The position numbers were made by a program, and so were the translations under genes. DNA of 64,000 nt from Kiritimatiellia bacterium. Lineage in GTDB: Bacteria; Verrucomicrobiota; Kiritimatiellia; RFP12; DVOR01. Below are positions 12,117 to 25,343 of the stretch, piece after piece. The stretch's first letter is position 1; every line of letters starts with the position of its first letter. The notes beneath the pieces are model-generated. The model was not told the origin of the DNA. It worked only from the letters and a program-made list of their open reading frames with translations, and did no database searches. Location: contig JAFXKZ010000001.1 in the NCBI GenBank assembly GCA_017531445.1, forward strand, positions 68,534-132,533, given 5' to 3'.

Positions 12117-14120
12117 TTACTTGGAAAGGTAGTCATTGATGAGGGCGGAGAGCCCCTCGACAGTGAAGCCGAAATATTCAGCGAGCTTGCCGGCTGGGCC
12201 CGAGGCTCCGAAGCCGCCCATGGTCAGCGTGGTGCCTTCATCGCCGATATAACGCTCCCAACCGAAAGCCGATGCCGCTTCCACCGCGATACGTTTCTTC
12301 ACGGAAGGCGGCAACACGCGCTTGCGATAGGCGGCGTTTTGCGCTTCAAAGAGTTCCCAACTCGGCATGGAGACCACACGCAGGTTGCGCCCGTCGGTCT
12401 GTGCTGCTTCGAGGGCGAGGCTGACCTCCGAGCCCGAGGCAATCAGGATCGCTTCGGGCGTTTTGTCCGGATTGCGCTGCCAGAGGATATACGCGCCCCG
12501 GGCGGTTTCATCGGCAGAGGGATAGACAGTGCGGTCGATAACCGGCAGGTTCTGACGCGAAAGGAGAAGCGCAGTCGGGCCATGTTTGCGGCTGAGGGCC
12601 ACTTCCCACGCCACGGCGGTTTCGGTGGCATCTGCCGGACGCAACACGCACATATTGGGCATGGCGCGCATGGCCGGAAGCTGCTCGATCGGTTCGTGCG
12701 TGGGACCGTCTTCGCCCACATAGAAGCTGTCGTGCGTCAATACGTAGATTACCGGAAGCCCCATTAACGCTGCAACGCGCATGACCGGACGGCAATAGTC
12801 GCAGAAAACAAAGAAGGTGCCGCCAAAGGTGCGCAACCCACCATGCACGGTGATGCCGTTCATGATTGCCGCCATCCCCTGTTCACGCACACCGAAACGG
12901 AAGTTGCGCCCGGTAAAATCGCCCTTGGCAATATCTCCCATCCCGTTGAGATAGGTCATATTGGAAGGCGCAAGGTCGGCACTGCCGCCCACAAGCCATG
13001 GGACGACCGGCGCAATGGCATTGAGCACTTTTCCGGAGGCTACACGCGTAGAGACAGGCTTACCATCCCATACCGGCAGATGATCTTCCAGATCTTCCGG
13101 CAGGGTGTTCTTGAGGCAGGCTTCCCATGCGGCTTTGAGCTTGATATCGGCAAAGGCAGCCTTCGCCGTGCGCTTCCAGGCATTGCGCACACGCTTCATC
13201 TTTGCTGCACGGGCGGCAAAGAGCGAACGCACGGCTTCCGGCACGACAAACGTTTCATCGGGATTGAAGCCGAGTGCCTGCTTGGTCAGGCGCAACTCTT
13301 CCGCGCCCAGCGGCGCACCATGGCAGGAGGCCGAGTCGGCCTTGTTGGGTGACCCTTTGCCGATGGTGGTTTCGCAAATCACGAGCACGGGTTTGTCTTC
13401 CGACTTGGCGGCCTTGCGCAACGTGCGGTCAATGGCGGCAATATCGTGCCCATCGCAAGTGAACACACGCCAGCCATACCCCTCAAAACGCTTTTTGGTG
13501 TCGTCGCTCATCGTGATGTCCACGCGTCCCTCAATGGAGATACGGTTGGAATCATAAAGGAGGATGAGTTTGTTCAAGCCCAGATTTCCGGCCATGGAGC
13601 AGGCTTCATGCGAGATGCCCTCTTCCAGATCACCATCGCCGCAGGTCACCCAGGTGCGGTGATCAACGAGCGTGTGCTCCGGCGTGTTGAAGCGTGCGGC
13701 CATCATGCGTTCTGCAATCGCCATGCCCACACCGTTGGCAATACCCTGACCGAGCGGACCGGTGGTCGTCTCGACCCCCGGCACAATGCCGTATTCCGGG
13801 TGTCCGGGCGTCTTGGAACCGAGCTGACGGAACTGCTTGAGGTCGTCCATTGAAAGCGCGTGTCCGGAGAGGTGCAACAGGGCATACAGCAACGAAGAAC
13901 CGTGCCCGCCCGACATGACAAAGCGGTCGCGATCGGCCCATGCCGGGTCGCTTCCGCAGAGTTTGAGGTGGCGCAGCCACAATACGGCGGCGACATCGGC
14001 CAAGCCCAACGCCACCCCCGGATGGCCGGAATTGGCACTTTGAACTTCATCAGCGGCGAGGCAGCGCAACGTGTTGGCTGCCAAAAGCATCTCGTTAAGG
14101 TCAAGTTTGCTCATGTGCAT
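12117..14120 (-). CDS. tkt: transketolase
   Basis: 667 aa with SGHPG, GPLGQGIANGVGMA, GDGDLEEGISHEA and THDSFYVGEDGPTHEPIEQ motifs. Confidence 0.95.
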   Translation of the reverse strand: MHMSKLDLNEMLLAANTLRCLAADEVQSANSGHPGVALGLADVAAVLWLRHLKLCGSDPAWADRDRFVMSGGHGSSLLYALLHLSGHALSMDDLKQFRQLGSKTPGHPEYGIVPGVETTTGPLGQGIANGVGMAIAERMMAARFNTPEHTLVDHRTWVTCGDGDLEEGISHEACSMAGNLGLNKLILLYDSNRISIEGRVDITMSDDTKKRFEGYGWRVFTCDGHDIAAIDRTLRKAAKSEDKPVLVICETTIGKGSPNKADSASCHGAPLGAEELRLTKQALGFNPDETFVVPEAVRSLFAARAAKMKRVRNAWKRTAKAAFADIKLKAAWEACLKNTLPEDLEDHLPVWDGKPVSTRVASGKVLNAIAPVVPWLVGGSADLAPSNMTYLNGMGDIAKGDFTGRNFRFGVREQGMAAIMNGITVHGGLRTFGGTFFVFCDYCRPVMRVAALMGLPVIYVLTHDSFYVGEDGPTHEPIEQLPAMRAMPNMCVLRPADATETAVAWEVALSRKHGPTALLLSRQNLPVIDRTVYPSADETARGAYILWQRNPDKTPEAILIASGSEVSLALEAAQTDGRNLRVVSMPSWELFEAQNAAYRKRVLPPSVKKRIAVEAASAFGWERYIGDEGTTLTMGGFGASGPAGKLAEYFGFTVEGLSALINDYLSK

Positions 14121-14359: not shown

Positions 14360-14455
14360 AACATGGGCGAAACTGCGCGGGAAGATGGGCGAGAGTGCAT
14401 GGGGCACTTGGGCGGAGTTCCTCGCGCACATGGGCGAAGTTGAAAACGAAGGTGG
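14360..14455. repeat. cluster of REP-like 11-mers (three ATGGGCGA copies) plus AAGTTGAAAACGAAGGTGG module
   Basis: AACATGGGCGA at 14360, AGATGGGCGA at 14383, ACATGGGCGA at 14428. The module at 14437-14455 is 18/19 identical to 35167-35185. Confidence 0.75.
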
Positions 14456-14613
14456 CCGTGAAACTTTTTCTTGTGGCGCGGCAACGGAAAAACGGGTGCG
14501 CCGTTCGCGCTTTCCGCTGCGGCAACGTTGCGCCCTGATAGCCTGCTTTGGAGGGGAGATGACGCTTGCTGTTGCGGGGAGGTTTTGATAACCTATCAAT
14601 GGTTACCGGTCAT

Positions 14614-14685
14614 AAAAAAGCCCCATACGGAGTACGTACAGGGAAGTCTTTGCGACTGCGGCATATAGCCTTGTTGTGAAAAGAC
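14614..14685 (-). ncRNA. tracrRNA: tracrRNA (predicted primary transcript, ~72 nt; weak residual anti-repeat homology extends to ~14710)
   Basis: Minus strand reads GUCUUUUCACAAC-AAGGCUAUAUGCC-GCAGUCGCAAAGACUU-CCCUGUACGuacucCGUAUGGGG-CUUUUUU. The first 13 nt are the perfect complement of repeat nt 1-13 (GTTGTGAAAAGAC). They are followed by an AAGG + GGC/GCC nexus-like hairpin, an AGUC/GACU hairpin, and a 9-bp hairpin with U6 terminator. Confidence 0.8.
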
Positions 14686-14691
14686 AGTGTT

Positions 14692-14721
14692 ATTGTAGAG
14701 GATTTTGCCCGGGACTGTCAA
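14692..14721 (-). promoter_or_regulatory. tracrRNA promoter (TTGACA-N18-TACAAT)
   Basis: Minus-strand -35 TTGACA at 14721-14716. -10 TACAAT at 14697-14692. Predicted +1 near 14685. The -35 lies 14 nt from the cas9 ATG and abuts its GGAGG RBS. Confidence 0.6.
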
Positions 14722-14735
14722 ACGGAGGCTTTAAG

Positions 14736-17700
14736 ATGAAGCGTTTAGGGATCGATTTGGGCACGTCGTCTTTGGGTTGGGCGATTCTGGATGATGAACG
14801 GATGTTTGCTTCACCAATAGGGGACGCGGCAACGTCTCCCATTGACTGCGGCGTGGTGATTTTCCCGGAAGGAATGGAGCGGGATAAATCGGATAATCTG
14901 AAATCTCCGGCGGCCTCACGGCGCAGTGCACGGGCGATGCGGCGGTTGATTTATCGCCGGAAATTGCGGAAGTTCCACCTACTCCAAGTGCTGATTGAAA
15001 ACGGTATGTGCCCGCTCAGCGCGGAGGGATTGGCAAAATGGAAGGCCGAAGGGTGCTATCCGGTGCAGGAAGAAGCTTTTATGGCGTGGGTGCAGGCGAG
15101 CAATGACCACAATCCGTATGCCGATCGTGCGGCGGCGGCAGAGCGGGCGGTTGACCCCTTGACGCTTGGGCGGGCCCTCTATCATATCGCGCAAAGGCGT
15201 GGCTTCAAGAGCTCAAAAAAGGAGCAGTTGGAGGCTTTGCCCGGAGAGAGCAAAGCCGGGAAAAATGGGAAGAACTCCACGGAAGCAACGCAAACGAAGC
15301 AGGCAATTGATACGCTCACGCAAGCACTGGAGGCGGAATCGCTCACGTTGGGGCAATATTTTTACAAGCTGTTTTTGGCGAATGCCGCAGCGATTGCCGC
15401 TACGGGAGAATCGGGAACCTCAGAGAGAATCATCGAACGGATTCGCGGACGCAAGACCGGACGCATTGAGCATTATCAGAAAGAGTTTGAGGTGATTGCG
15501 GAGAAACAAGCGTTATCGTTGGAATTAAAGGAACGCCTGGCCTCAATTCTTTTCTTTCAGCGTCCGTTGCGGATTCAGCGTCATACGGTCGGGTATTGCG
15601 CACTTGAAAAGGGAAAATCGGCCAGAAAATATCGCCGCTGCTTAAAGAGTCATCCGACGTTTGAATACTACCGTGCGCTTTGCTTCCTTAATAATTTGCG
15701 CGTGGGTGAGACGTTGCAAGAGGGGAAAGACCGATTGCAAAATGGCGAGGGCACTCCTTTGTCGGCGGAAGAGCGCGCCAAAGTATTGGAGGCTTTGTGC
15801 GAAAAAGATAATTGCACAGTGGAAGAACTTTTCGGGAAGAAAAAGTCGCCTTTGGGCAAAAAGGTCTATACCAATTACCGCCCCTCGGATGATGCTCCCG
15901 TGATGCCGATCCGGGCACGCTTTATGAAGTTGGGGATCCCGGAGGCTCAATGGCAGATGGCGTTGAATGCCGCCATGGATTTTGAAGACCTTGAAAAGTT
16001 GATGGTTTGGGCACAGAAGCCGGAAACCCTTGGGCTCGAACCGAAAGCTGCGCGCACCTTTGCCCGGATGCGCTTTTCGACAGATCGCGCCGATTACAGT
16101 CTCCATGCAATCCGGAAAATCATTCCTTATCTGGAGCGGGGGTTTACGCTGCGCAAGGCCACTTTCTGTGCAAAATTGGGTGACATCATCCCGGCGTTTG
16201 AAGAGAAGCGCGAGCAAGTGTTGCAGGGTCTGTGCGACTGTGAGCGGAATTACGCGGAAGAAAAGGCGCGCCGCGTGCCGGGTGGGTATGGAAAAGTGAA
16301 TCCGCTGGAGACCTACCATTACAAGCGTTATCTCGCCGCGCAATGGGAAGTTTCGGAAGAAGCCTTCAAGCAGTTGTATGTGGATCTCACCGAGACCGAT
16401 GAGGCGAATCCGGTGTTGCCTCCGGTGAATCTGGGCGCGATCCGCAATCCGTTGAGCTGCCGTTCGCTGACGGTGTTGCGGCGTTTGGTGAATGCCTTGC
16501 GTAAAACGGGGAAGATTGATGCCCAAACGCAGATTTTCATTGAATTGGCGCACACGGTGAACAGTGCGAATGATTGCCGTGCGATTGAGCTGTATCAGAA
16601 GGAACAGAAAGCAAAACGTGAAGAAGCCGCTGCCGAGGTGCAGAACATCATTGACGAGCATCATCTTTCCATTACCGTTAATGAAGATACGATTTTACGC
16701 TATTTGCTTTGGGAAGAACAGGAGAAGTGTTGTGTCTACACAGGGCAACCCATCAGCCAGAAAGCGATCTTCACCGACTGTGATATTGAGCATACCATTC
16801 CGCGTTCGCGCGGGGGAACGAATGAACTTGAGAACCTTACCTTGTGTTTTCAACACTACAATCGCAATGTGAAAAAGGGAAAACTTCCCTCGGAGTGTCC
16901 CAATGCCACAGAAGCGTGGTTCGACCCGGAGACGAAGGAAGAATATCCGGCGTTGCAGATAAGTAAACCCTTGAAGCAGTGGCGCGATGCGTTGCATGGT
17001 TTGCAGAAAAAATTGGAGAAAAAACCGAAACGCGGCGGTGATGTTTCGATTTACAATCAGCAACGCATCAAATGGCTGTTGAGCAAGCGCAAGAGGGACT
17101 ATCTGAAAAAGAAATTGGAGACCTTTACAATCACGCGTGACAAGGTGGAAGAAAAAAGCTTCATTCCCCGACAGATGGTAGATACCGGCATCATCACTAC
17201 GCAGGCTGTCAAGTTTTTGAAGAGCCGCTATCGGCACGTTTATACGCGCAACGGTGCTGTTACTGCTGCCGCCCGAAAAGCGTGGGGGATTCAGAAAGAA
17301 GATGAGAAAAAAGCGCGTGTTGACCACATTCATCACGCGGTAGATGCGTGTGTGATTGCGGCACTGGATCCGAAAGCCTTTACGGAAATCTGCACACAGT
17401 TGGGCAAAAATGAGAAAACTACGCGCTGGAATGCGGTTGTGCCGCCGCCATATGAGGACTTTGCACGGCGGATCAATGCGGCGACCGAAAGCGTGTTGGT
17501 GCGGCATTTGCCGTTGAATCGTCAGGTGCGTCCGATTGGTAAGCGGCGGCAACGGGTGCCGCTATCGGTGAAAAAGCAATTGAAGTTTGAGAAGAAGGCA
17601 CCTGCAAAAGCGCAAAGAACCTTGGTGGTGCGTGGCAGTTTGCACAATGATACGCTTTATGGAAAGATCAAAATTGCAGGTGAAGAAACCGTTGTTTTGC

Positions 17701-18428
17701 GCAAGACGATCTCCGCACTTGGCAATGACCTGAAGAAAAATGTGGCAAATGCGGTGGACAAGGCCGTAAGAGAGGCCTTAGAGCAACAGATTGCAACGTA
17801 TGAGGCTCAGGGCATTGCGGTAAAAGACCTGCCCAATCAACGTTATCACCTCCCCTCCGGAATCCCCATCAAAAAGATTCGCGTCAAAATCAGCAAGCCT
17901 AAAAATCCGGATGCACTCCGCGCACAAGCCTTCGCCCCCGATAAGCCCGTCTATGGTTCCGGAAGCGATGCTTTGTGTCTTGAAATCGTCCAGAATAATA
18001 AAGGGGTGAGCGTTCCAATCTATCGAACGCTTCTTCAGGAGGTAAAAGAAACTCGATCGGATGAAGAAAAACGTGCGGTATCTTTCAAAATTTATCCCAT
18101 GCAACTTGCGCTTACGTATGAAAAATCTCCGGACGAATTAAAAATGCTTTCCGGTCGGGAATTGAGTAAGCGACTCTATGTTGTCCGAAAGGTGACAGAT
18201 GATGGTAGAACGACGCTTTACTACCATCGGGAAGCACGACGCTCTACGGTGTTGGGTGAAGAATTAAAAGCGATGGGGAAAAACAAAGAGGGTGCCTCCA
18301 ATGTTAATTTTTCAAGCCCTGAACCATTGCTGCTGGTCACCAAAGGCGTCTTCCTGGAGCATATGCTCTTTGAAGGCGTTCACTTCACGTTGTCAATGGA
18401 TGGTAAAATCGAGTGGATTGATGATTAA
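14736..18428 (+). CDS. cas9: CRISPR-associated endonuclease Cas9, type II-C (1230 aa)
   Basis: RuvC-I MKRLGIDLGTSSLGWAIL, bridge helix SRRSARAMRRLIYRRKLRKF, RuvC-II IFIELAH, HNH CDIEHTIPRSRGGTNELENLTLC..NRNVKKG, RuvC-III HHAVDACVIA. GGAGG RBS at 14724-14728. The track ORF start at 14676 is rejected because it lies in the tracrRNA anti-repeat. Confidence 0.95.
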   Translation: MKRLGIDLGTSSLGWAILDDERMFASPIGDAATSPIDCGVVIFPEGMERDKSDNLKSPAASRRSARAMRRLIYRRKLRKFHLLQVLIENGMCPLSAEGLAKWKAEGCYPVQEEAFMAWVQASNDHNPYADRAAAAERAVDPLTLGRALYHIAQRRGFKSSKKEQLEALPGESKAGKNGKNSTEATQTKQAIDTLTQALEAESLTLGQYFYKLFLANAAAIAATGESGTSERIIERIRGRKTGRIEHYQKEFEVIAEKQALSLELKERLASILFFQRPLRIQRHTVGYCALEKGKSARKYRRCLKSHPTFEYYRALCFLNNLRVGETLQEGKDRLQNGEGTPLSAEERAKVLEALCEKDNCTVEELFGKKKSPLGKKVYTNYRPSDDAPVMPIRARFMKLGIPEAQWQMALNAAMDFEDLEKLMVWAQKPETLGLEPKAARTFARMRFSTDRADYSLHAIRKIIPYLERGFTLRKATFCAKLGDIIPAFEEKREQVLQGLCDCERNYAEEKARRVPGGYGKVNPLETYHYKRYLAAQWEVSEEAFKQLYVDLTETDEANPVLPPVNLGAIRNPLSCRSLTVLRRLVNALRKTGKIDAQTQIFIELAHTVNSANDCRAIELYQKEQKAKREEAAAEVQNIIDEHHLSITVNEDTILRYLLWEEQEKCCVYTGQPISQKAIFTDCDIEHTIPRSRGGTNELENLTLCFQHYNRNVKKGKLPSECPNATEAWFDPETKEEYPALQISKPLKQWRDALHGLQKKLEKKPKRGGDVSIYNQQRIKWLLSKRKRDYLKKKLETFTITRDKVEEKSFIPRQMVDTGIITTQAVKFLKSRYRHVYTRNGAVTAAARKAWGIQKEDEKKARVDHIHHAVDACVIAALDPKAFTEICTQLGKNEKTTRWNAVVPPPYEDFARRINAATESVLVRHLPLNRQVRPIGKRRQRVPLSVKKQLKFEKKAPAKAQRTLVVRGSLHNDTLYGKIKIAGEETVVLRKTISALGNDLKKNVANAVDKAVREALEQQIATYEAQGIAVKDLPNQRYHLPSGIPIKKIRVKISKPKNPDALRAQAFAPDKPVYGSGSDALCLEIVQNNKGVSVPIYRTLLQEVKETRSDEEKRAVSFKIYPMQLALTYEKSPDELKMLSGRELSKRLYVVRKVTDDGRTTLYYHREARRSTVLGEELKAMGKNKEGASNVNFSSPEPLLLVTKGVFLEHMLFEGVHFTLSMDGKIEWIDD

Positions 18429-19326
18429 ACGCACGGTCTGTTTCTCAAATCCGGGGACGCTTCGTCTTCATTTGCGCCAGCTCGTCTGGCGGGGTGAGGA
18501 TGCGCGGGAAACCGCTGTACCGATAGAAGATCTCGGTGTGTTGATTTTGGAGTCACCGTTAATCACGGTAAGCACGGCTTTGTTGCAGGCACTTACGGAA
18601 GCGTGTGTAGCCGTTGTGCTATGCGATGCGGCGCATTTGCCGTCAGGCTATTTACTGCCGCAGGCGTCGCATACGTTGGCAAGTCGCATCTTGCGTCAGC
18701 AGATTGAGCTTTCCGATGCACGGGCAGGGATGTTGTGGCAGCAGATTGTGATTGCCAAAATCCGGAACCAAGCCGCCGTGATTCGGAGCATGGATGCAAC
18801 AAAAGCAGAGGAACTGCTTCAGATGGCAGCGCAGGTAAGGCGGGGCGATGTGACAAACCTTGAAGCGCAAGCTGCCAGACGTTATTTTGAAGCGTTCCCG
18901 ATTCCGGAAGACGTTTTCCATCGGTCGCGGTACGGGACAATGCCGAATGCCGCGCTGAATTACGGTTATGCAATTCTACGTGCTGCCGTGGCGCGTGCGC
19001 TGGTGGGGTCGGGCTTGAATCCGGAATTGGGATTGCACCATCGCAACCAATACAATCATTTCTGTCTGGCAGATGATGTGATGGAGCCGTATCGTCCATT
19101 CGTCGATAGGATTGTTTTGGAGCATCTGGACACCTTTGAAAAGACGGAATATCCCACCAAATTGTCCGCGAAAGGGAAGCAATTGTTACTACCATTCCTG
19201 ACAATGGATGTGCAGCTTGGAGCGGCGACACGACCGCTTTTTAATGCACTTCAATTGACCTCCGCATCGTTGGTACGGTGTGTTTGCAATCAGCAAAAAA
19301 CGCTTGAACTCCCCTCAATTCCATGA
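18421..19326 (+). CDS. cas1: CRISPR-associated endonuclease Cas1 (type II)
   Basis: MIKRTVCFSNPGTLRLHLRQLVW... with typical type II Cas1 features (NAALNYGYAILRAAVARAL, GLHHRNQYNHFCLADDVMEPYRPFVD). The ATG overlaps the cas9 stop (ATGATTAA). Confidence 0.92.
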   Translation: MIKRTVCFSNPGTLRLHLRQLVWRGEDARETAVPIEDLGVLILESPLITVSTALLQALTEACVAVVLCDAAHLPSGYLLPQASHTLASRILRQQIELSDARAGMLWQQIVIAKIRNQAAVIRSMDATKAEELLQMAAQVRRGDVTNLEAQAARRYFEAFPIPEDVFHRSRYGTMPNAALNYGYAILRAAVARALVGSGLNPELGLHHRNQYNHFCLADDVMEPYRPFVDRIVLEHLDTFEKTEYPTKLSAKGKQLLLPFLTMDVQLGAATRPLFNALQLTSASLVRCVCNQQKTLELPSIP

Positions 19327-19670
19327 GTGAAGTCGATTTCTCTGCGATCAATCATTACAAAGCGATGTGGCTTTACGCACTCTTTGACTTGCCGACCGAA
19401 ACGAAGAAGCAGCGGAAAAACGCCGCTCTTTTCCGAAAAGGACTTCTGCAGGACGGCTTTACAATGTTTCAATTCTCGGTTTACATCCGCCACTGTGCTT
19501 CCCGGGAAAATGCCGAAGTCCATATACGGCGTGTTCGCGCAATGACGCCGGAAGAAGGAAGAGTCGCGATTATAGCGGTAACCGATCGCCAATTTGATCA
19601 GATGGTTATTCTCTATGGCGCAAAAGAAAAACCGCCGCCGCCTGCGCCTCTGCAACTCGAACTCTTTTAA
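19323..19670 (+). CDS. cas2: CRISPR-associated endoribonuclease Cas2
   Basis: 115 aa. YKAMWLYALFDLPTETKKQRKNAALFRKGLLQDGFTMFQFSVYIRHC is a typical type II Cas2. ATGA overlap with cas1. Confidence 0.9.
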   Translation: MSEVDFSAINHYKAMWLYALFDLPTETKKQRKNAALFRKGLLQDGFTMFQFSVYIRHCASRENAEVHIRRVRAMTPEEGRVAIIAVTDRQFDQMVILYGAKEKPPPPAPLQLELF

Positions 19671-19679
19671 CTTTTCACT

Positions 19680-19726
19680 CAAAAAAGAACGCTTTCAACT
19701 CCATTTCAGGGAGATTGAAAGCGTTT
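19680..19726. terminator. bidirectional hairpin terminator between cas2 and the array
   Basis: 11-bp perfect stem AACGCTTTCAA (19687-19697) / TTGAAAGCGTT (19714-19724). On the plus strand it is followed by TTTT. On the minus strand it is followed by the better TTCTTTTTT tract. Confidence 0.65.
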
Positions 19727-19782
19727 TGAGATTTGATTTCACCTCTTAACTCATTCATACAATAAAGAAATATGACTTCAAT

Positions 19783-22588
19783 ATTGTATCAAATCCCAAG
19801 AGGGAGTCTTTTCACAACTATTCAACAATCATATTCAACTCCTTTTCTATTGTATCAAATCCCAAGAGGGAGTCTTTTCACAACTCCGTGGCGCATTTCG
19901 TTTTGATTCTCCGCATTGTATCAAATCCCAAGAGGGAGTCTTTTCACAACAGTGAGTCTTGCGTAGGAGTTTTAGAAACTATTGTATCAAATCCCAAGAG
20001 GGAGTCTTTTCACAACTCTGCGTAAATGTCAAGAAGATTCTGCTCCATTGTATCAAATCCCAAGAGGGAGTCTTTTCACAACTGCATAAGATAGGCGGCG
20101 TTGGTCGCGGAGATTGTATCAAATCCCAAGAGGGAGTCTTTTCACAACTCTTCGCGCACGAAATGAAAACTATCAACGATTGTATCAAATCCCAAGAGGG
20201 AGTCTTTTCACAACTGAGCGCATCCACTTCCTCTTGACGCGGCCATTGTATCAAATCCCAAGAGGGAGTCTTTTCACAACCACCAAGTAAATAATGGCAA
20301 AAAAATAGCATTGTATCAAATCCCAAGAGGGAGTCTTTTCACAACCTTCTCTTTCTCCCCGCGTTGGGGTAGTTGATTGTATCAAATCCCAAGAGGGAGT
20401 CTTTTCACAACTGGAACGCCCCGAACGCATCACTGTCCAGAATTGTATCAAATCCCAAGAGGGAGTCTTTTCACAACCACCTGGACGGGCAAGAACATCC
20501 CGTTGGCATTGTATCAAATCCCAAGAGGGAGTCTTTTCACAACGGTGTTTCAGTTCGGGCGATGCTTGAGAATATTGTATCAAATCCCAAGAGGGAGTCT
20601 TTTCACAACCAAAAGACATCCATCTGCACATCCCATGAGATTGTATCAAATCCCAAGAGGGAGTCTTTTCACAACCGGATACCGCCTATAAATACAGCGC
20701 GGAAGATTGTATCAAATCCCAAGAGGGAGTCTTTTCACAACCATGGCTGGGGACAACATTACCAAAGCACGATTGTATCAAATCCCAAGAGGGAGTCTTT
20801 TCACAACATACCTGCTTCGTTGCCGAACAGTCTGCCGATTGTATCAAATCCCAAGAGGGAGTCTTTTCACAACCATAAGGACAAACTTTAGCAGTTGCGG
20901 ATAATTGTATCAAATCCCAAGAGGGAGTCTTTTCACAACTGTCACTGGTGGCGCCGACCACGTATTTTCATTGTATCAAATCCCAAGAGGGAGTCTTTTC
21001 ACAACCTTCTCCAACTGCTGAATTTTTTTCAGTAGATTGTATCAAATCCCAAGAGGGAGTCTTTTCACAACCACTGCTGTTTTTCTCCTCCAGCAGTAGC
21101 AATTGTATCAAATCCCAAGAGGGAGTCTTTTCACAACCCGCGGCGCGTCTTGGACGCATATCAAAAAATTGTATCAAATCCCAAGAGGGAGTCTTTTCAC
21201 AACTTTTTGGCGTAACTGTGAAGTGTCAAGAAAATTGTATCAAATCCCAAGAGGGAGTCTTTTCACAACGGCCCGGGCAGAAAATACGTTATTTTGCTTA
21301 TTGTATCAAATCCCAAGAGGGAGTCTTTTCACAACGTTGCATGGCGTGAAGCGGTTCGCGCCTGCATTGTATCAAATCCCAAGAGGGAGTCTTTTCACAA
21401 CTGGGCACGTGGTCATCGATGCAAGCCTCCGATTGTATCAAATCCCAAGAGGGAGTCTTTTCACAACCGATATACCATTTGTTGTATCTTTTGACGAATT
21501 GTATCAAATCCCAAGAGGGAGTCTTTTCACAACCGATATACCATTTGTTGTATCTTTTGACGAATTGTATCAAATCCCAAGAGGGAGTCTTTTCACAACT
21601 AGTTCTCGCTGCGCCTCCCTACGGCACACATTGTATCAAATCCCAAGAGGGAGTCTTTTCACAACTACAGGTGCGTGGCACTAAGAAGTCGCTTCATTGT
21701 ATCAAATCCCAAGAGGGAGTCTTTTCACAACTGTACGCCGCCGTGGGAGACCCATGCGGAATTGTATCAAATCCCAAGAGGGAGTCTTTTCACAACGAAG
21801 AAGTAGGTGGTGTTGCGTATGTGTTAATTGTATCAAATCCCAAGAGGAAGTCTTTTCACAACTAATCGATTATTAACTCTTCTTTTCCGGACATTGTATC
21901 AAATCCCAAGAGGGAGTCTTTTCACAACAGTTTGCGCAGTTTGCACGTAACTGTTTGCATTGTATCAAATCCCAAGAGGGAGTCTTTTCACAACCGCATT
22001 GAACTTCAAAAAAATAGAACGCCTATTGTATCAAATCCCAAGAGGGAGTCTTTTCACAACAACGAGTGGGTAGACTGCGAGGCCACCATTATTGTATCAA
22101 ATCCCAAGAGGGAGTCTTTTCACAACTAGGCGGATTGGCGAAGCGTAGAGATTTCTATTGTATCAAATCCCAAGAGGGAGTCTTTTCACAACTCTTATTT
22201 ATTAGATTTGTTCGGCCCGGAAATTGTATCAAATCCCAAGAGGGAGTCTTTTCACAACTTCTATTCTGATGAATACGCAGGCTTGCTCATTGTATCAAAT
22301 CCCAAGAGGGAGTCTTTTCACAACCCGGTGACAGGGTCAATGCCGTTTTCGTCAATTGTATCAAATCCCAAGAGGGAGTCTTTTCACAACCCAAAGCAAT
22401 GGCAATTAAAGAAAATGCTAATTGTATCAAATCCCAAGAGGGAGTCTTTTCACAACGTATGTCATCACATCTAATGCCGCAGCCCTATTGTATCAAATCC
22501 CAAGAGGGAGTCTTTTCACAACTTTTGCGTTTGACCTCAAGTGCGCCCGCCCATTGTATCAAATCCCAAGAGGGAGTCTTTTCTCAGT
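19783..22588 (-). CRISPR. CRISPR array with 43 repeats and 42 spacers (36-bp repeat; 40 spacers of 30 bp, 2 of 29 bp)
   Basis: Plus-strand repeat is ATTGTATCAAATCCCAAGAGGGAGTCTTTTCACAAC with 66-bp periodicity. Every unit was parsed by hand. R32 (21827-21862) carries one SNP. Terminal R43 (22553-22588) has 3 changes in its outer 5 nt. Spacers 26 and 27 are identical. Minus-strand orientation is inferred from the canonical II-C GTTGT...ACAAT form, tracrRNA complementarity and the TGaTACAAT embedded promoter. Confidence 0.97.
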
Positions 22589-22765
22589 AGTTTTCTCAGT
22601 AGAGAGTAATAAAATTATTAATCTATAAATAAATAATGGAGGGGGACAAGGAGTGAGATCGGTAACTTATGGCAAAAGGGTGTGTGCGGCAATGCTTTTC
22701 ATGAGAAAGGAGGTTCTTTTATGGAGCGGCTGAATGCGTTATTCTTTTTTAGACGGGGTGGTTTG

Positions 22766-22774
22766 TGGTATAAT
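22766..22774 (+). promoter_or_regulatory. putative leuS extended -10 (TGgTATAAT)
   Basis: Read directly, about 35 nt upstream of the leuS ATG. No clear -35. Confidence 0.4.
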
Positions 22775-22808
22775 GTACAGCGTTTTTTTACTTGAAGGAA
22801 GGTCTATC

Positions 22809-25343
22809 ATGATGGAAGAAAAATATCCGTTTCACGCGATTGAACCCAAGTGGCAGAAGTTTTGGGATGAGAATGGGACGTTTCGCTGTGATGCGCAGGA
22901 TGATTCCCGTCCGAAGTTTTATTGCTTGACGATGTTCCCTTATCCCAGTGGTCATATGCACGTGGGGCATGGGCGTAACTACATCATGGGGGATGTGATT
23001 ACGCGTTATAAGAAGATGACGGGGTATAATGTGCTTTCGCCAATGGGATGGGACAGCTTCGGATTGCCGGCGGAGAATGCAGCCAAGAAGTTTCATGTGC
23101 ATCCACACAAGTGGACGATTGAGAATATTCAGGAGATGAAGCGACAGGTGCGCAGTTGGGGGGTCGGTTACGATTGGGAGCGTGAAATCGCAACATGCCA
23201 TCCGGATTATTACAAGTGGACGCAGTGGGTGTTCTTGCAGGCATATAAACTGGGGGTGGCCTATCAGAAAGAATCTCCGGTCAACTGGTGCCCGCTGTGC
23301 ACGAATCTGGCGAATGAGGAAGTCACGGCTGATGGACATTGTGATCGTTGCGGACGTCCGGTAGAGAAGAAGAATCTCAAGCAATGGTTCTTCAGAATCA
23401 CTCAGTATGCCGATCGATTGTTAAAGGATTTGGATTTACTTGAGGGGTGGCCGGAGAAGGTTCGCCAGATGCAGGCCAACTGGATTGGAAAATCAGAGGG
23501 GGCAAAGGTCGTCTTCAAAGTGACCGAGACCGGGGATGAATGCCCGGTATATACGACGCGCCCGGATACGATTTTCGGTGTGACGTTTATGGCAATCGCG
23601 CCGGACAATCCGCTGCTGCAAAAGTTGCTTCCCGGTTCTGAGCGGGAAGCGGAAGTGCGCACATTCATTGATAAGCTTGCCAATATTCCTGCTGCGGAGC
23701 GTTTCTCTGATGCCACGGCGAAAGAGGGCGTCTTTACCGGTTTCCACGTGACCAATCCCTATAATGGTGATCGCGATATTGAATTGTGGGTGACGAATTA
23801 TGTAGTCTCTGATTCCGGAACGGGAATTGTGATGGCGGTGCCAACGCATGATCAGCGAGACTGGGACTTTGCCACGAAGTATGATATCGCCAAGAAGATT
23901 GTCATTCAAAACGCTGAAGGCACTCTTGATTTGGCAACGATGACGGCGGCCTACGTGGAAGATGGCGTATTGGTGAATTCCGGTGCCTTTGATGGCATGG
24001 CCAATCGTGAGGCAATTAAGGCAATCATCGCCGATGGCACAGAAAAGGGATTTGCCGAGGCGACAACCAATTTCCGTATTCGTGATTGGAATGTGGCGCG
24101 TCAACGTTATTGGGGGGCACCGATTCCGATTGTGCACTGTCCGCACTGTGGTGCAGTGCCTGTGCCGGAAGATCAACTGCCCGTGCGTCTTCCGGATGAT
24201 GTGGATTATGATGGTGATCAGGGGAATCCTCTGGCGCGGCATGAAGGCTTTGTTAATACTACCTGCCCGAAGTGTGGTGCACCGGCAAAGCGTGAGACCG
24301 ATACGCTCGCCCAATGGTTGTGCTCGTGCTGGTATTTCTTGCGTTACATTGATGCCCGGAATGAGGCTGCGCCCTTTGATAAGGCATTGGTGGACAAGTG
24401 GATGCCAGTGGATCAGTATATCGGTGGCGTAGAGCATGCGGTATTGCACTTGCTCTACTCACGCTTTGTGGTAAAAATCCTCAATGATGCAGGGGCATTG
24501 GACTGTGTAGAGCCGTTTAAGGCGTTGTTTACGCAGGGGATGATTTGCAAACGTTGCGAAAAAGATGATGGCAAATACGTCAAGGGCAAACTCTACAAGA
24601 TGTCGAAATCGGTGGGGAACGTTGTCTCTCCGGACGAACTGATTAAGACGTATGGTGCAGATACTGTTCGCCTGTACACGCTCTTTATCGGACCGCCGGA
24701 ATTGGATGCCGAGTGGCAGGACGCTGCAGTGCAGGGGCCCTATCGCTTCCTTTGCCGTCTGTGGAAGCGTGCTTATGATGCCAAGTCCATTGTACCGGAG
24801 CAGGATGTCGCGGTGCAGATCGACGCACTTACGCCGGTGGAACGCGATCTTTATCGCAAGTTGCACCAGACTTTGGCCGGTGTGACTGATTCCATTGAGC
24901 ACGGATTCCGTTTCAATACGGCCATTGCGCAGTTGATGGAATTGATGAATGTTCTGGATAAAGCCAAGATTGATGCGACTTCGTCCGATGCGGCGAAGGC
25001 GTTACTGCGTGAGACGATTGTAACAATCGCGCGGATGATGGCTCCGATTACGCCGCACATTGCCGAAGAGTTGTGGCAGGCGTTTGGCTGTACACCTGCC
25101 GGTGTGATGAGTGCCGGTTGGCCCACAGTGAATGCGGAAGCCTTGAAGGAAGATTCGCTTCAAATTATTCTGCAGGTGAATGGCAAGATGCGCGGTAAAA
25201 TCATGGTGCCCGCAGGCATCGGCAAGGAGGAATTGGAGGTTCTCGCCCGTGATTCTGCTGATGTGAAGCGCTTTACCGATGGACAAACCATCGTCAAAGT
25301 GATTGTGGTGCCCGGGAAGCTCGTCAACATCGTGGTGAAATAA
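22809..25343 (+). CDS. leuS: leucine--tRNA ligase
   Basis: [25 protein letters not shown] (HIGH motif), KMSKS, CP1 editing domain. Start at the internal Met of track ORF 22734. Confidence 0.95.

Follow-up and report, generated by a model that had tools for sequence, protein, structure and literature searches.

The window analysed here (the whole stretch of DNA, 64 kb in length) belongs to the metagenome-assembled genome (MAG) of an uncultured Kiritimatiellales bacterium with a completeness of 50%. It carries a cas9-cas1-cas2 operon, a CRISPR array and a predicted trans-activating CRISPR RNA (tracrRNA) gene, which very probably constitute a functional type II-C CRISPR-Cas9 adaptive immune system of this bacterium. 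The Cas9 belongs to a sizeable uncharacterised branch. The locus is otherwise an ordinary member of a well-known kind, its sole unusual trait being a consistently short anti-repeat. The cas operon consists of the following genes.

14736-18428, plus strand: cas9, encoding 1230 aa (TIGR01865, 2.2e-117; Pfam HNH_4 and RuvC_III), with RuvC-I, RuvC-II, RuvC-III and HNH intact.
18421-19326, plus strand: cas1, encoding 301 aa of the type II kind (TIGR03639 cas1_NMENI, 4.6e-79; PADLOC Cas1_II, 2.5e-100).
19323-19670, plus strand: cas2, encoding 115 aa (PF09827, 1.7e-15; TIGR01573, 2e-17; PADLOC Cas2_II, 2.5e-43).

The initial annotation had described the three genes as contiguous, and their coordinates confirmed this: cas1 starts with the ATG at 18421, overlapping cas9 by 8 nt, and cas2 overlaps cas1 by 4 nt. 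The array follows 112 nt after the end of cas2, while the 615-nt gap upstream of cas9 contains only the tracrRNA and open reading frames (ORFs) without Pfam match. The gene csn2 is the mark of subtype II-A and cas4 that of II-B; there is no space for either within the locus. The Cas4 profile PF01930 had no match in the 50%-complete genome and did match in control genomes. The Csn2 profile PF09711 also had no match in the genome, but it had none in the controls either, so that this search was uninformative. Subtype II-C is defined by an operon of cas9, cas1 and cas2 only (PMC3737331), which is the operon found here, with neither csn2 nor cas4 in the locus. The same three genes only were found in the 26 loci of relatives from which all three were recovered, and together with the cas1_NMENI match they bear out the earlier assignment to II-C by gene content. 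As expected of type II, the Cas9 is one large effector protein in which the RuvC domain is split and an HNH domain is inserted, and its classification by profile hidden Markov model (TIGR01865) agreed. Taken together, gene content, Cas1 type and the nearest solved structures support subtype II-C.

All catalytic strings quoted in the initial annotation were present in the Cas9 translation, namely GIDLGTSSLGWAIL (residues 5-18), IFIELAH (599-605), DIEHTIPRS (683-691), ENLTLC (699-704), NRNVKKG (709-715) and HHAVDACVIA (866-875). Across 60 aligned members of the clade, residues E603, H686, N709, H866, H867 and D870 were invariant and D7 nearly so. An AlphaFold2 model of residues 1-1200 was obtained with a mean local confidence (pLDDT) of 81.5 and a predicted template modelling score (pTM) of 0.60. 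Its best Foldseek match was Nme1Cas9 of Neisseria meningitidis (6je4/6jdq; E 4e-32, TM-score 0.54-0.61, 19% identity), followed by ThermoCas9, GeoCas9, HpaCas9, CbCas9, AceCas9 and then compact II-A enzymes. The top 19 matches were all II-C, and II-B enzymes were absent from the top 50. By sequence, the best match in the PDB was ThermoCas9 (E 6e-24), over the HNH/RuvC core only. Near-identity to a characterised ortholog, which would have removed the novelty claimed for this protein, was thus not found among the PDB sequences or structures. A literature search with the guide-RNA sequences as text gave no match, and no relevant paper on a Kiritimatiellae Cas9 was found.

The size of the protein had been placed at the large end for II-C enzymes. 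This is not the case: 1230 aa is mid-range, because II-C enzymes of 1400 aa (Riemerella, PMC5006608) and 1442 aa (the CbCas9 chain in the PDB) exist. Published Cas9s have between 984 and 1629 aa, typically about 1100 or 1400 (PMC3737331). According to alignment coordinates, the extra ~150 aa relative to the 1082-aa ThermoCas9 chain are distributed as about +30 near the N-terminus, +70 in the recognition (REC) lobe and +50 in the linker from HNH to RuvC-III.

Among known systems, that of N. meningitidis shares with this locus the cas9-cas1-cas2 operon without a fourth gene, 36-nt GTTGT...ACAAT repeats and 30-nt spacers. The two systems differ in that the Cas9s are only 19% identical and the present one is about 150 aa longer than Nme1Cas9; here, moreover, the tracrRNA lies antisense-upstream of cas9 and has an anti-repeat of just 13 nt, beyond which complementarity ends. 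The Cas9s of Geobacillus and ThermoCas9 (9ar4, 8jtj) and of Haemophilus parainfluenzae (8hnt) are the best sequence matches in the PDB (E 6e-24 to 4e-22) and have the II-C fold in common with it, but only the RuvC-II/HNH/RuvC-III core matches, the REC parts and those interacting with the protospacer-adjacent motif (PAM) being unalignable by sequence. The Chryseobacterium CbCas9 (8iyq, 8wr4) is likewise a II-C enzyme larger than the compact ones and gave the highest query-normalised TM-score (0.60). CbCas9 and its Bacteroidota II-C relatives are nevertheless longer (1400-1442 aa) and only 16% identical; they accompany long repeats of up to 47-48 nt (PMC5006608), whereas the repeats here have 36 nt. 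The Campylobacter jejuni II-C system has a similar minimal operon with the array opposite to the cas genes (PMC3737331), but its Cas9 has 984 aa and was a much weaker structural match (rank 50).

A tracrRNA whose anti-repeat is complementary to the repeat, the other hallmark of type II, is predicted in the gap upstream of cas9 with the following parts.

14692-14721, minus strand: tracrRNA promoter, TTGACA and TACAAT separated by 18 nt, agreeing with 11 of 12 sigma-70 consensus positions.
About 14612-14685, minus strand: predicted tracrRNA of ~72-74 nt, the 5' end predicted from the promoter.
14685-14673, minus strand: anti-repeat GUCUUUUCACAAC, the perfect complement of repeat nt 1-13.
14672-14659, minus strand: nexus-like hairpin AAGGCUAUAUGCCG in the tracrRNA fold.
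About 14657-14645, minus strand: hairpin AGUCGCAAAGACU (AGUC/GACU) in the tracrRNA fold.
14643-14621, minus strand: terminator stem of 9 bp found by terminator scan, followed by a U-run at 14619-14614.

Shuffled versions of the region gave 0.6 sites in the promoter scan, and a TTGACA/TAnnnT pair lies equivalently upstream of the anti-repeat in related loci. The tracrRNA region was found by blastn antisense-upstream of cas9 in all 29 related loci, and the nexus anchor in 27 of the 28 loci with a recovered cas9 5' end. This stretch is the sole part of the spacer between tkt and cas9 that is conserved in other genomes. The terminator stems vary in sequence between loci and always keep their pairing through compensatory changes. 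The anti-repeat likewise covaries with the repeat of its own locus, being GTTGTGAAAAGAC/GTCTTTTCACAAC here as against GCTGTAAAAAGAC/GTCTTTTTACAGC in locus L026, and ATTGTG.../...CACAAT in L029. In another locus (L031, G288:C122), the segment ATGCCGTAGTC..GTGACTAC of the tracrRNA scaffold, between nexus and terminator, is tandemly triplicated.

The array and the elements at its two ends are listed below.

19783-22588, minus strand (the predicted CRISPR RNA (crRNA) strand): CRISPR array of 43 repeats of 36 nt and 42 spacers, the repeat reading GUUGUGAAAAGAC...UGAUACAAU.
22553-22588, minus strand: degenerate terminal repeat R43, with the promoter half kept and the tracr-pairing half lost.
19690-19727, no strand assigned: 11-bp inverted repeat between cas2 and the array, read from the sequence, a candidate stop for read-through in either direction.

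Forty-one of the 43 repeats are identical. A single mismatch was found in R32, and three in the terminal R43, at its outer end. The array had been credited with 42 uniform 30-bp spacers. The count holds and the uniformity does not: 40 spacers have 30 nt and two (S8 and S30) have 29 nt. The number of 41 unique spacers was correct, S26 being the same as S27. The loop of the inverted repeat, at 16 nt, places it outside the criteria of the terminator scan.

Since its promoter and terminator fix the strand of the tracrRNA, the crRNA is predicted to be read from the minus strand of the array and hence to be antisense to the cas operon. The arrays of N. meningitidis and C. jejuni are also transcribed in this direction (PMC3737331). 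Three related loci (L028, L030, L033) have an array of inverted orientation with respect to the cas operon, so that the repeat reads GTTGTGAAAGGAC in the cas sense; the tracrRNA position in these loci is still antisense-upstream of cas9.

In 18 loci, the short anti-repeat was examined further by pairing each repeat with the 36 nt that precede the nexus. Repeat positions 1-15 formed 12-13 pairs, and the complementarity was 13-15 nt long in every locus. Positions 16-36 formed 6-12 pairs out of 21, compared with about 8 expected for random sequence with G-U allowed. Each locus has a -10-like TAnnnT box whose end lies 18-21 nt ahead of the nexus, in most of them ~6-7 nt before the start of the anti-repeat. 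The duplex energy is -18.4 kcal/mol here and would reach at most -22.3 kcal/mol even if upstream sequence were transcribed, compared with a published median of -39.4 kcal/mol for II-C hybrids, possibly calculated by a different method (PMC6546382).

In N. meningitidis each repeat contains a promoter (PMC5006608, PMC3737331). Here every repeat ends with an extended -10 box, TGaTACAAT in the minus sense, and a two-hexamer promoter scan found none flanking either end of the array, including 19600-20100 and 22589-22733. Because of this box and of the missing two-hexamer promoter at either end, transcription in the manner of Neisseria, from promoters inside all repeats, is most likely, as judged from the analysis of the array. 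Maturation of the crRNAs is probably independent of ribonuclease III (RNase III), since a 13-nt duplex is too short for a typical substrate of this enzyme.

Alternatively, an external promoter on the minus strand, within the AT-rich stretch 22589-22733, could give a single long pre-crRNA of the whole array, to be processed by RNase III together with the tracrRNA, the TGaTACAAT box being incidental. Such an AT-rich stretch does lie upstream of the array in the minus sense, RNase III is encoded in all relatives of the genus, and TGnTACAAT is not kept in most repeats of the wider clade. No sigma-70-like promoter was found in 22589-22733, however, and a complementarity of only 13-15 nt in 18 of 18 loci, random beyond, makes a poor RNase III substrate. 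A longer anti-repeat in the transcript is also precluded by the -10 box of the tracrRNA, which lies 6-7 nt before the anti-repeat. We therefore consider this alternative unlikely and regard transcription from within the repeats as the more likely mode.

A host without RNase III was also considered as the cause of the short anti-repeat and was rejected: TIGR02191, although missing from the 50%-complete MAG, has a match in all 27 genus relatives and in 298 of 319 genomes of the order. A further possibility, which we put forward tentatively and somewhat doubtfully, is that the guide of the clade is a naturally minimal dual RNA, in which the tracrRNA begins exactly at the 13-15-nt anti-repeat, the duplex is about half as stable as that of a typical II-C system and RNase III is never used. 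In the subclade of the window, a repeat hairpin (UCCC/GGGA) may then stack on the duplex and replace the upper stem, giving in effect a nicked single-guide RNA. This hairpin is UCCC-UCUU-GGGA (-5.8 kcal/mol), at repeat nt 14-25 in the minus sense, right after the tracr-pairing segment. Close relatives have it with other letters, through compensatory changes (AUCUU/AAGAU in L025, CCC/GGG in L026, UCUU/AAGA in L028), and the wider clade does not have it.

In order to assess adaptation, the spacers were compared with those of a strain with a 98% identical Cas9, found on a 288-kb scaffold (L143; ENA ERZ28593491). The L143 locus lies at the same site, and both its repeat and its degenerate end repeat are identical to those of the window. 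None of its 26 spacers, nor one more from a second sample, is shared with the 42 of the window. L143 spacer 15 overlaps spacer S15 of the window (20742-20771) by 18 nt on the opposite strand, and therefore the same target was sampled by both lineages. Overlapping pairs of this kind, by 15-18 nt on opposite strands and with the PAM sides outward, were seen twice: between L143 spacers 2 and 3 of one array and between L143 spacer 15 and S15. They suggest either that acquisition has hot spots or that a single target site was sampled repeatedly.

Three protospacers were found in prophages of congeners. S7 matches at 28 of 30 positions, with the 13 PAM-proximal nt perfect, in a lambda-type portal gene of genome G037 that adjoins a ClpP-like protease gene. 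L143 spacer 4 matches at 30 of 30 positions in a Mu-like transposition gene of genome G016 that adjoins Mu Gam, and L143 spacer 1 at 27 of 30 in the same genome. The targeted pieces lie in sister species: one (L147, G016:C83) is Mu-like, with a phrog_296 transposition protein and a phrog_491 Mu Gam, and the other (L019/L020, G037:C24) is a module of lambda-type portal and ClpP-like protease. The full spacer turnover relative to the 98% strain and the matches to congener prophages support real, recent adaptation at the locus, as the initial annotation had proposed in calling the adaptation module active or recently active. The search of phage, plasmid and metagenome sets proposed at that time added no further target and gave no PAM. 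Spacers had no credible match in the phage records of INPHARED, no match in the plasmid records of PLSDB and none in the JGI metagenome contigs scanned. Exact scans of IMG/VR with four 22-mers gave no match, and a search of IMG/VR for relatives of the targeted portal and Mu-like proteins gave none.

Some other candidate targets were set aside. A self-targeting match of S7 (C1:318802-318831, 24 of 30) lies in an unannotated 187-aa ORF that is no homolog of the G037 portal, and a match in genome G019 lies in an ABC-2 permease gene; both were attributed to chance. S24 (21336-21365) resembles, with 3-5 mismatches, a stretch ANRFTRCHVWGG of a conserved beta-helix, pectate-lyase-like gene (L008, L010, L012, L014, L015). 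In six genomes of other families the S24 matches, with 3-7 mismatches, were borderline against chance and were not used. The S24 match could be accidental, the true target perhaps being a homolog in a phage tail-spike, or it could be due to chance alone.

The locus might also be a recently silenced relic, with genes that look intact and both acquisition and interference lost. In favour of this reading, the collections searched held a convincing target for only one of the 41 unique spacers of the window. Against it stand the full-length ORFs with conserved catalytic residues, the 41 identical repeats out of 43, the complete turnover of spacers between strains with a 2% difference in Cas9, and the overlap of S15 and L143 spacer 15 on the same target, which together make a relic very unlikely.

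The degeneracy of R43 is shared with L143, and therefore the cas-distal end of the array is old and fixed. Since this end is old, we infer that new spacers enter at the cas2-proximal end. That the array is instead read from the plus strand with a leader by cas2, as in type II-A, is hardly credible: the degenerate repeat at the cas-distal end is what systems with leader-proximal acquisition have, but the crRNA would then equal the anti-repeat sequence of the tracrRNA rather than its complement, the tracrRNA strand is fixed by promoter and terminator and by their conservation, and no promoter was found in 19600-20100.

Several points weigh against a functional II-C system operating as proposed. 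Only three protospacers were found, and their 3' flanks (ACGAGCAAAACG, CGAGCCATCAATGCC and AAATACGCCCGTTCC) have nothing in common but the C at +6, as chance alone would give, so that no PAM was derived. The repeats lack a -35 element and did not pass the two-hexamer promoter scan, and the TGnTACAAT box is kept only in the near subclade and in L048, not throughout the Cas9 clade. All 27 genus relatives encode RNase III, so that processing by this enzyme is possible. The tracrRNA 5' end, the crRNA starts and the use of promoters inside the repeats are all predictions. Lastly, a half-complete genome leaves room for further cas loci or for anti-CRISPRs.

With these points considered, the locus would work as follows. 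The minus strand would be the source of the crRNAs, which would run antisense to the cas operon and would each most likely start at the TGaTACAAT that closes a repeat, as in N. meningitidis. Such starts would give guides of ~23-24 nt followed by the repeat, of which only nt 1-13 would pair with the 5' end of the ~72-nt tracrRNA. Cas9 with this dual RNA would cut PAM-flanked phage DNA by means of RuvC and HNH, and Cas1-Cas2 would insert new spacers cas2-proximally, Cas9 choosing the PAM.

The Cas9 clade, with proteins of ~1170-1266 aa, was found in 45 of the 319 genomes of the order, that is about one in seven, and in 7 of the 28 genomes of the genus including this one. Homologs of this length are numerous in metagenomes, the few named ones being from Kiritimatiellia MAGs. 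In the 26 loci with all three genes recovered, cas9, cas1 and cas2 have the same order with nothing between them. For some Cas9s of the same genus (G040, 44%; G023, 50%) the identity is no higher than for Cas9s from other families (G185 and G288, 50%), which suggests, on sequence comparison, that Cas9 is exchanged within the order. In one locus of a genus relative (L026, G026:C22:1623-5339) cas9 has one in-frame TAA stop, from either a broken copy or an assembly error.

The locus is flanked by two genes, as had been reported, and both were confirmed by Pfam.

12117-14120, minus strand: tkt.
22734-25343, plus strand: leuS.

An island insertion between core genes had been proposed for this site. 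A clean insertion is not supported by base composition and synteny: the cas genes have a guanine plus cytosine (GC) content of 49-52.5%, compared with 51.5-52.8% for the genome, and the tkt/leuS junction is not conserved in relatives. Within the genus the pair lysS-tkt is conserved. In all 23 genus relatives in which both were found, tkt and leuS are on separate contigs, and in none of these 23 is leuS or cas9 present in the 1.5 kb upstream of tkt. The genes that adjoin tkt and leuS in relatives have dispersed positions in the present genome. For these reasons, the site is regarded as a synteny breakpoint and not as a conserved tkt-leuS junction. In L143 the arrangement is identical, with lysS-tkt, then cas9-cas1-cas2 and the array, then leuS; the locus is thus stable at this site within the species. 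Over longer times it is likely mobile, given its patchy distribution and differing contexts.

The right flank is AT-rich as described before (GC 38.6% at 22589-22733, compared with 54% for the window). On the left, the REP-like repeats reported earlier proved to be only three weak direct repeats of ~34 nt (ACATGGGCGAA..., 63-71% identity) at 14361-14461 in the tkt-cas9 spacer, not conserved in relatives. As for the source genome (G000), it comprises 2 contigs and 1.40 Mb, yet is 50% complete, and the genomes of relatives have 1.4-2.5 Mb; about half of it is seemingly missing despite the long contigs.

The understanding of the type II mechanism is unchanged by this locus. For technology, the clade is an untried source of Cas9, 19% identical to Nme1Cas9, with a guide scaffold that is compact and well defined, comprising 13 nt of the repeat and a ~72-nt tracrRNA, and that can be written straight from the sequence. 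For the biology of the group, the locus documents a gut or rumen-type Kiritimatiellales bacterium with an apparently working Cas9 system directed against its own temperate phages, both Mu-like and lambda-like.

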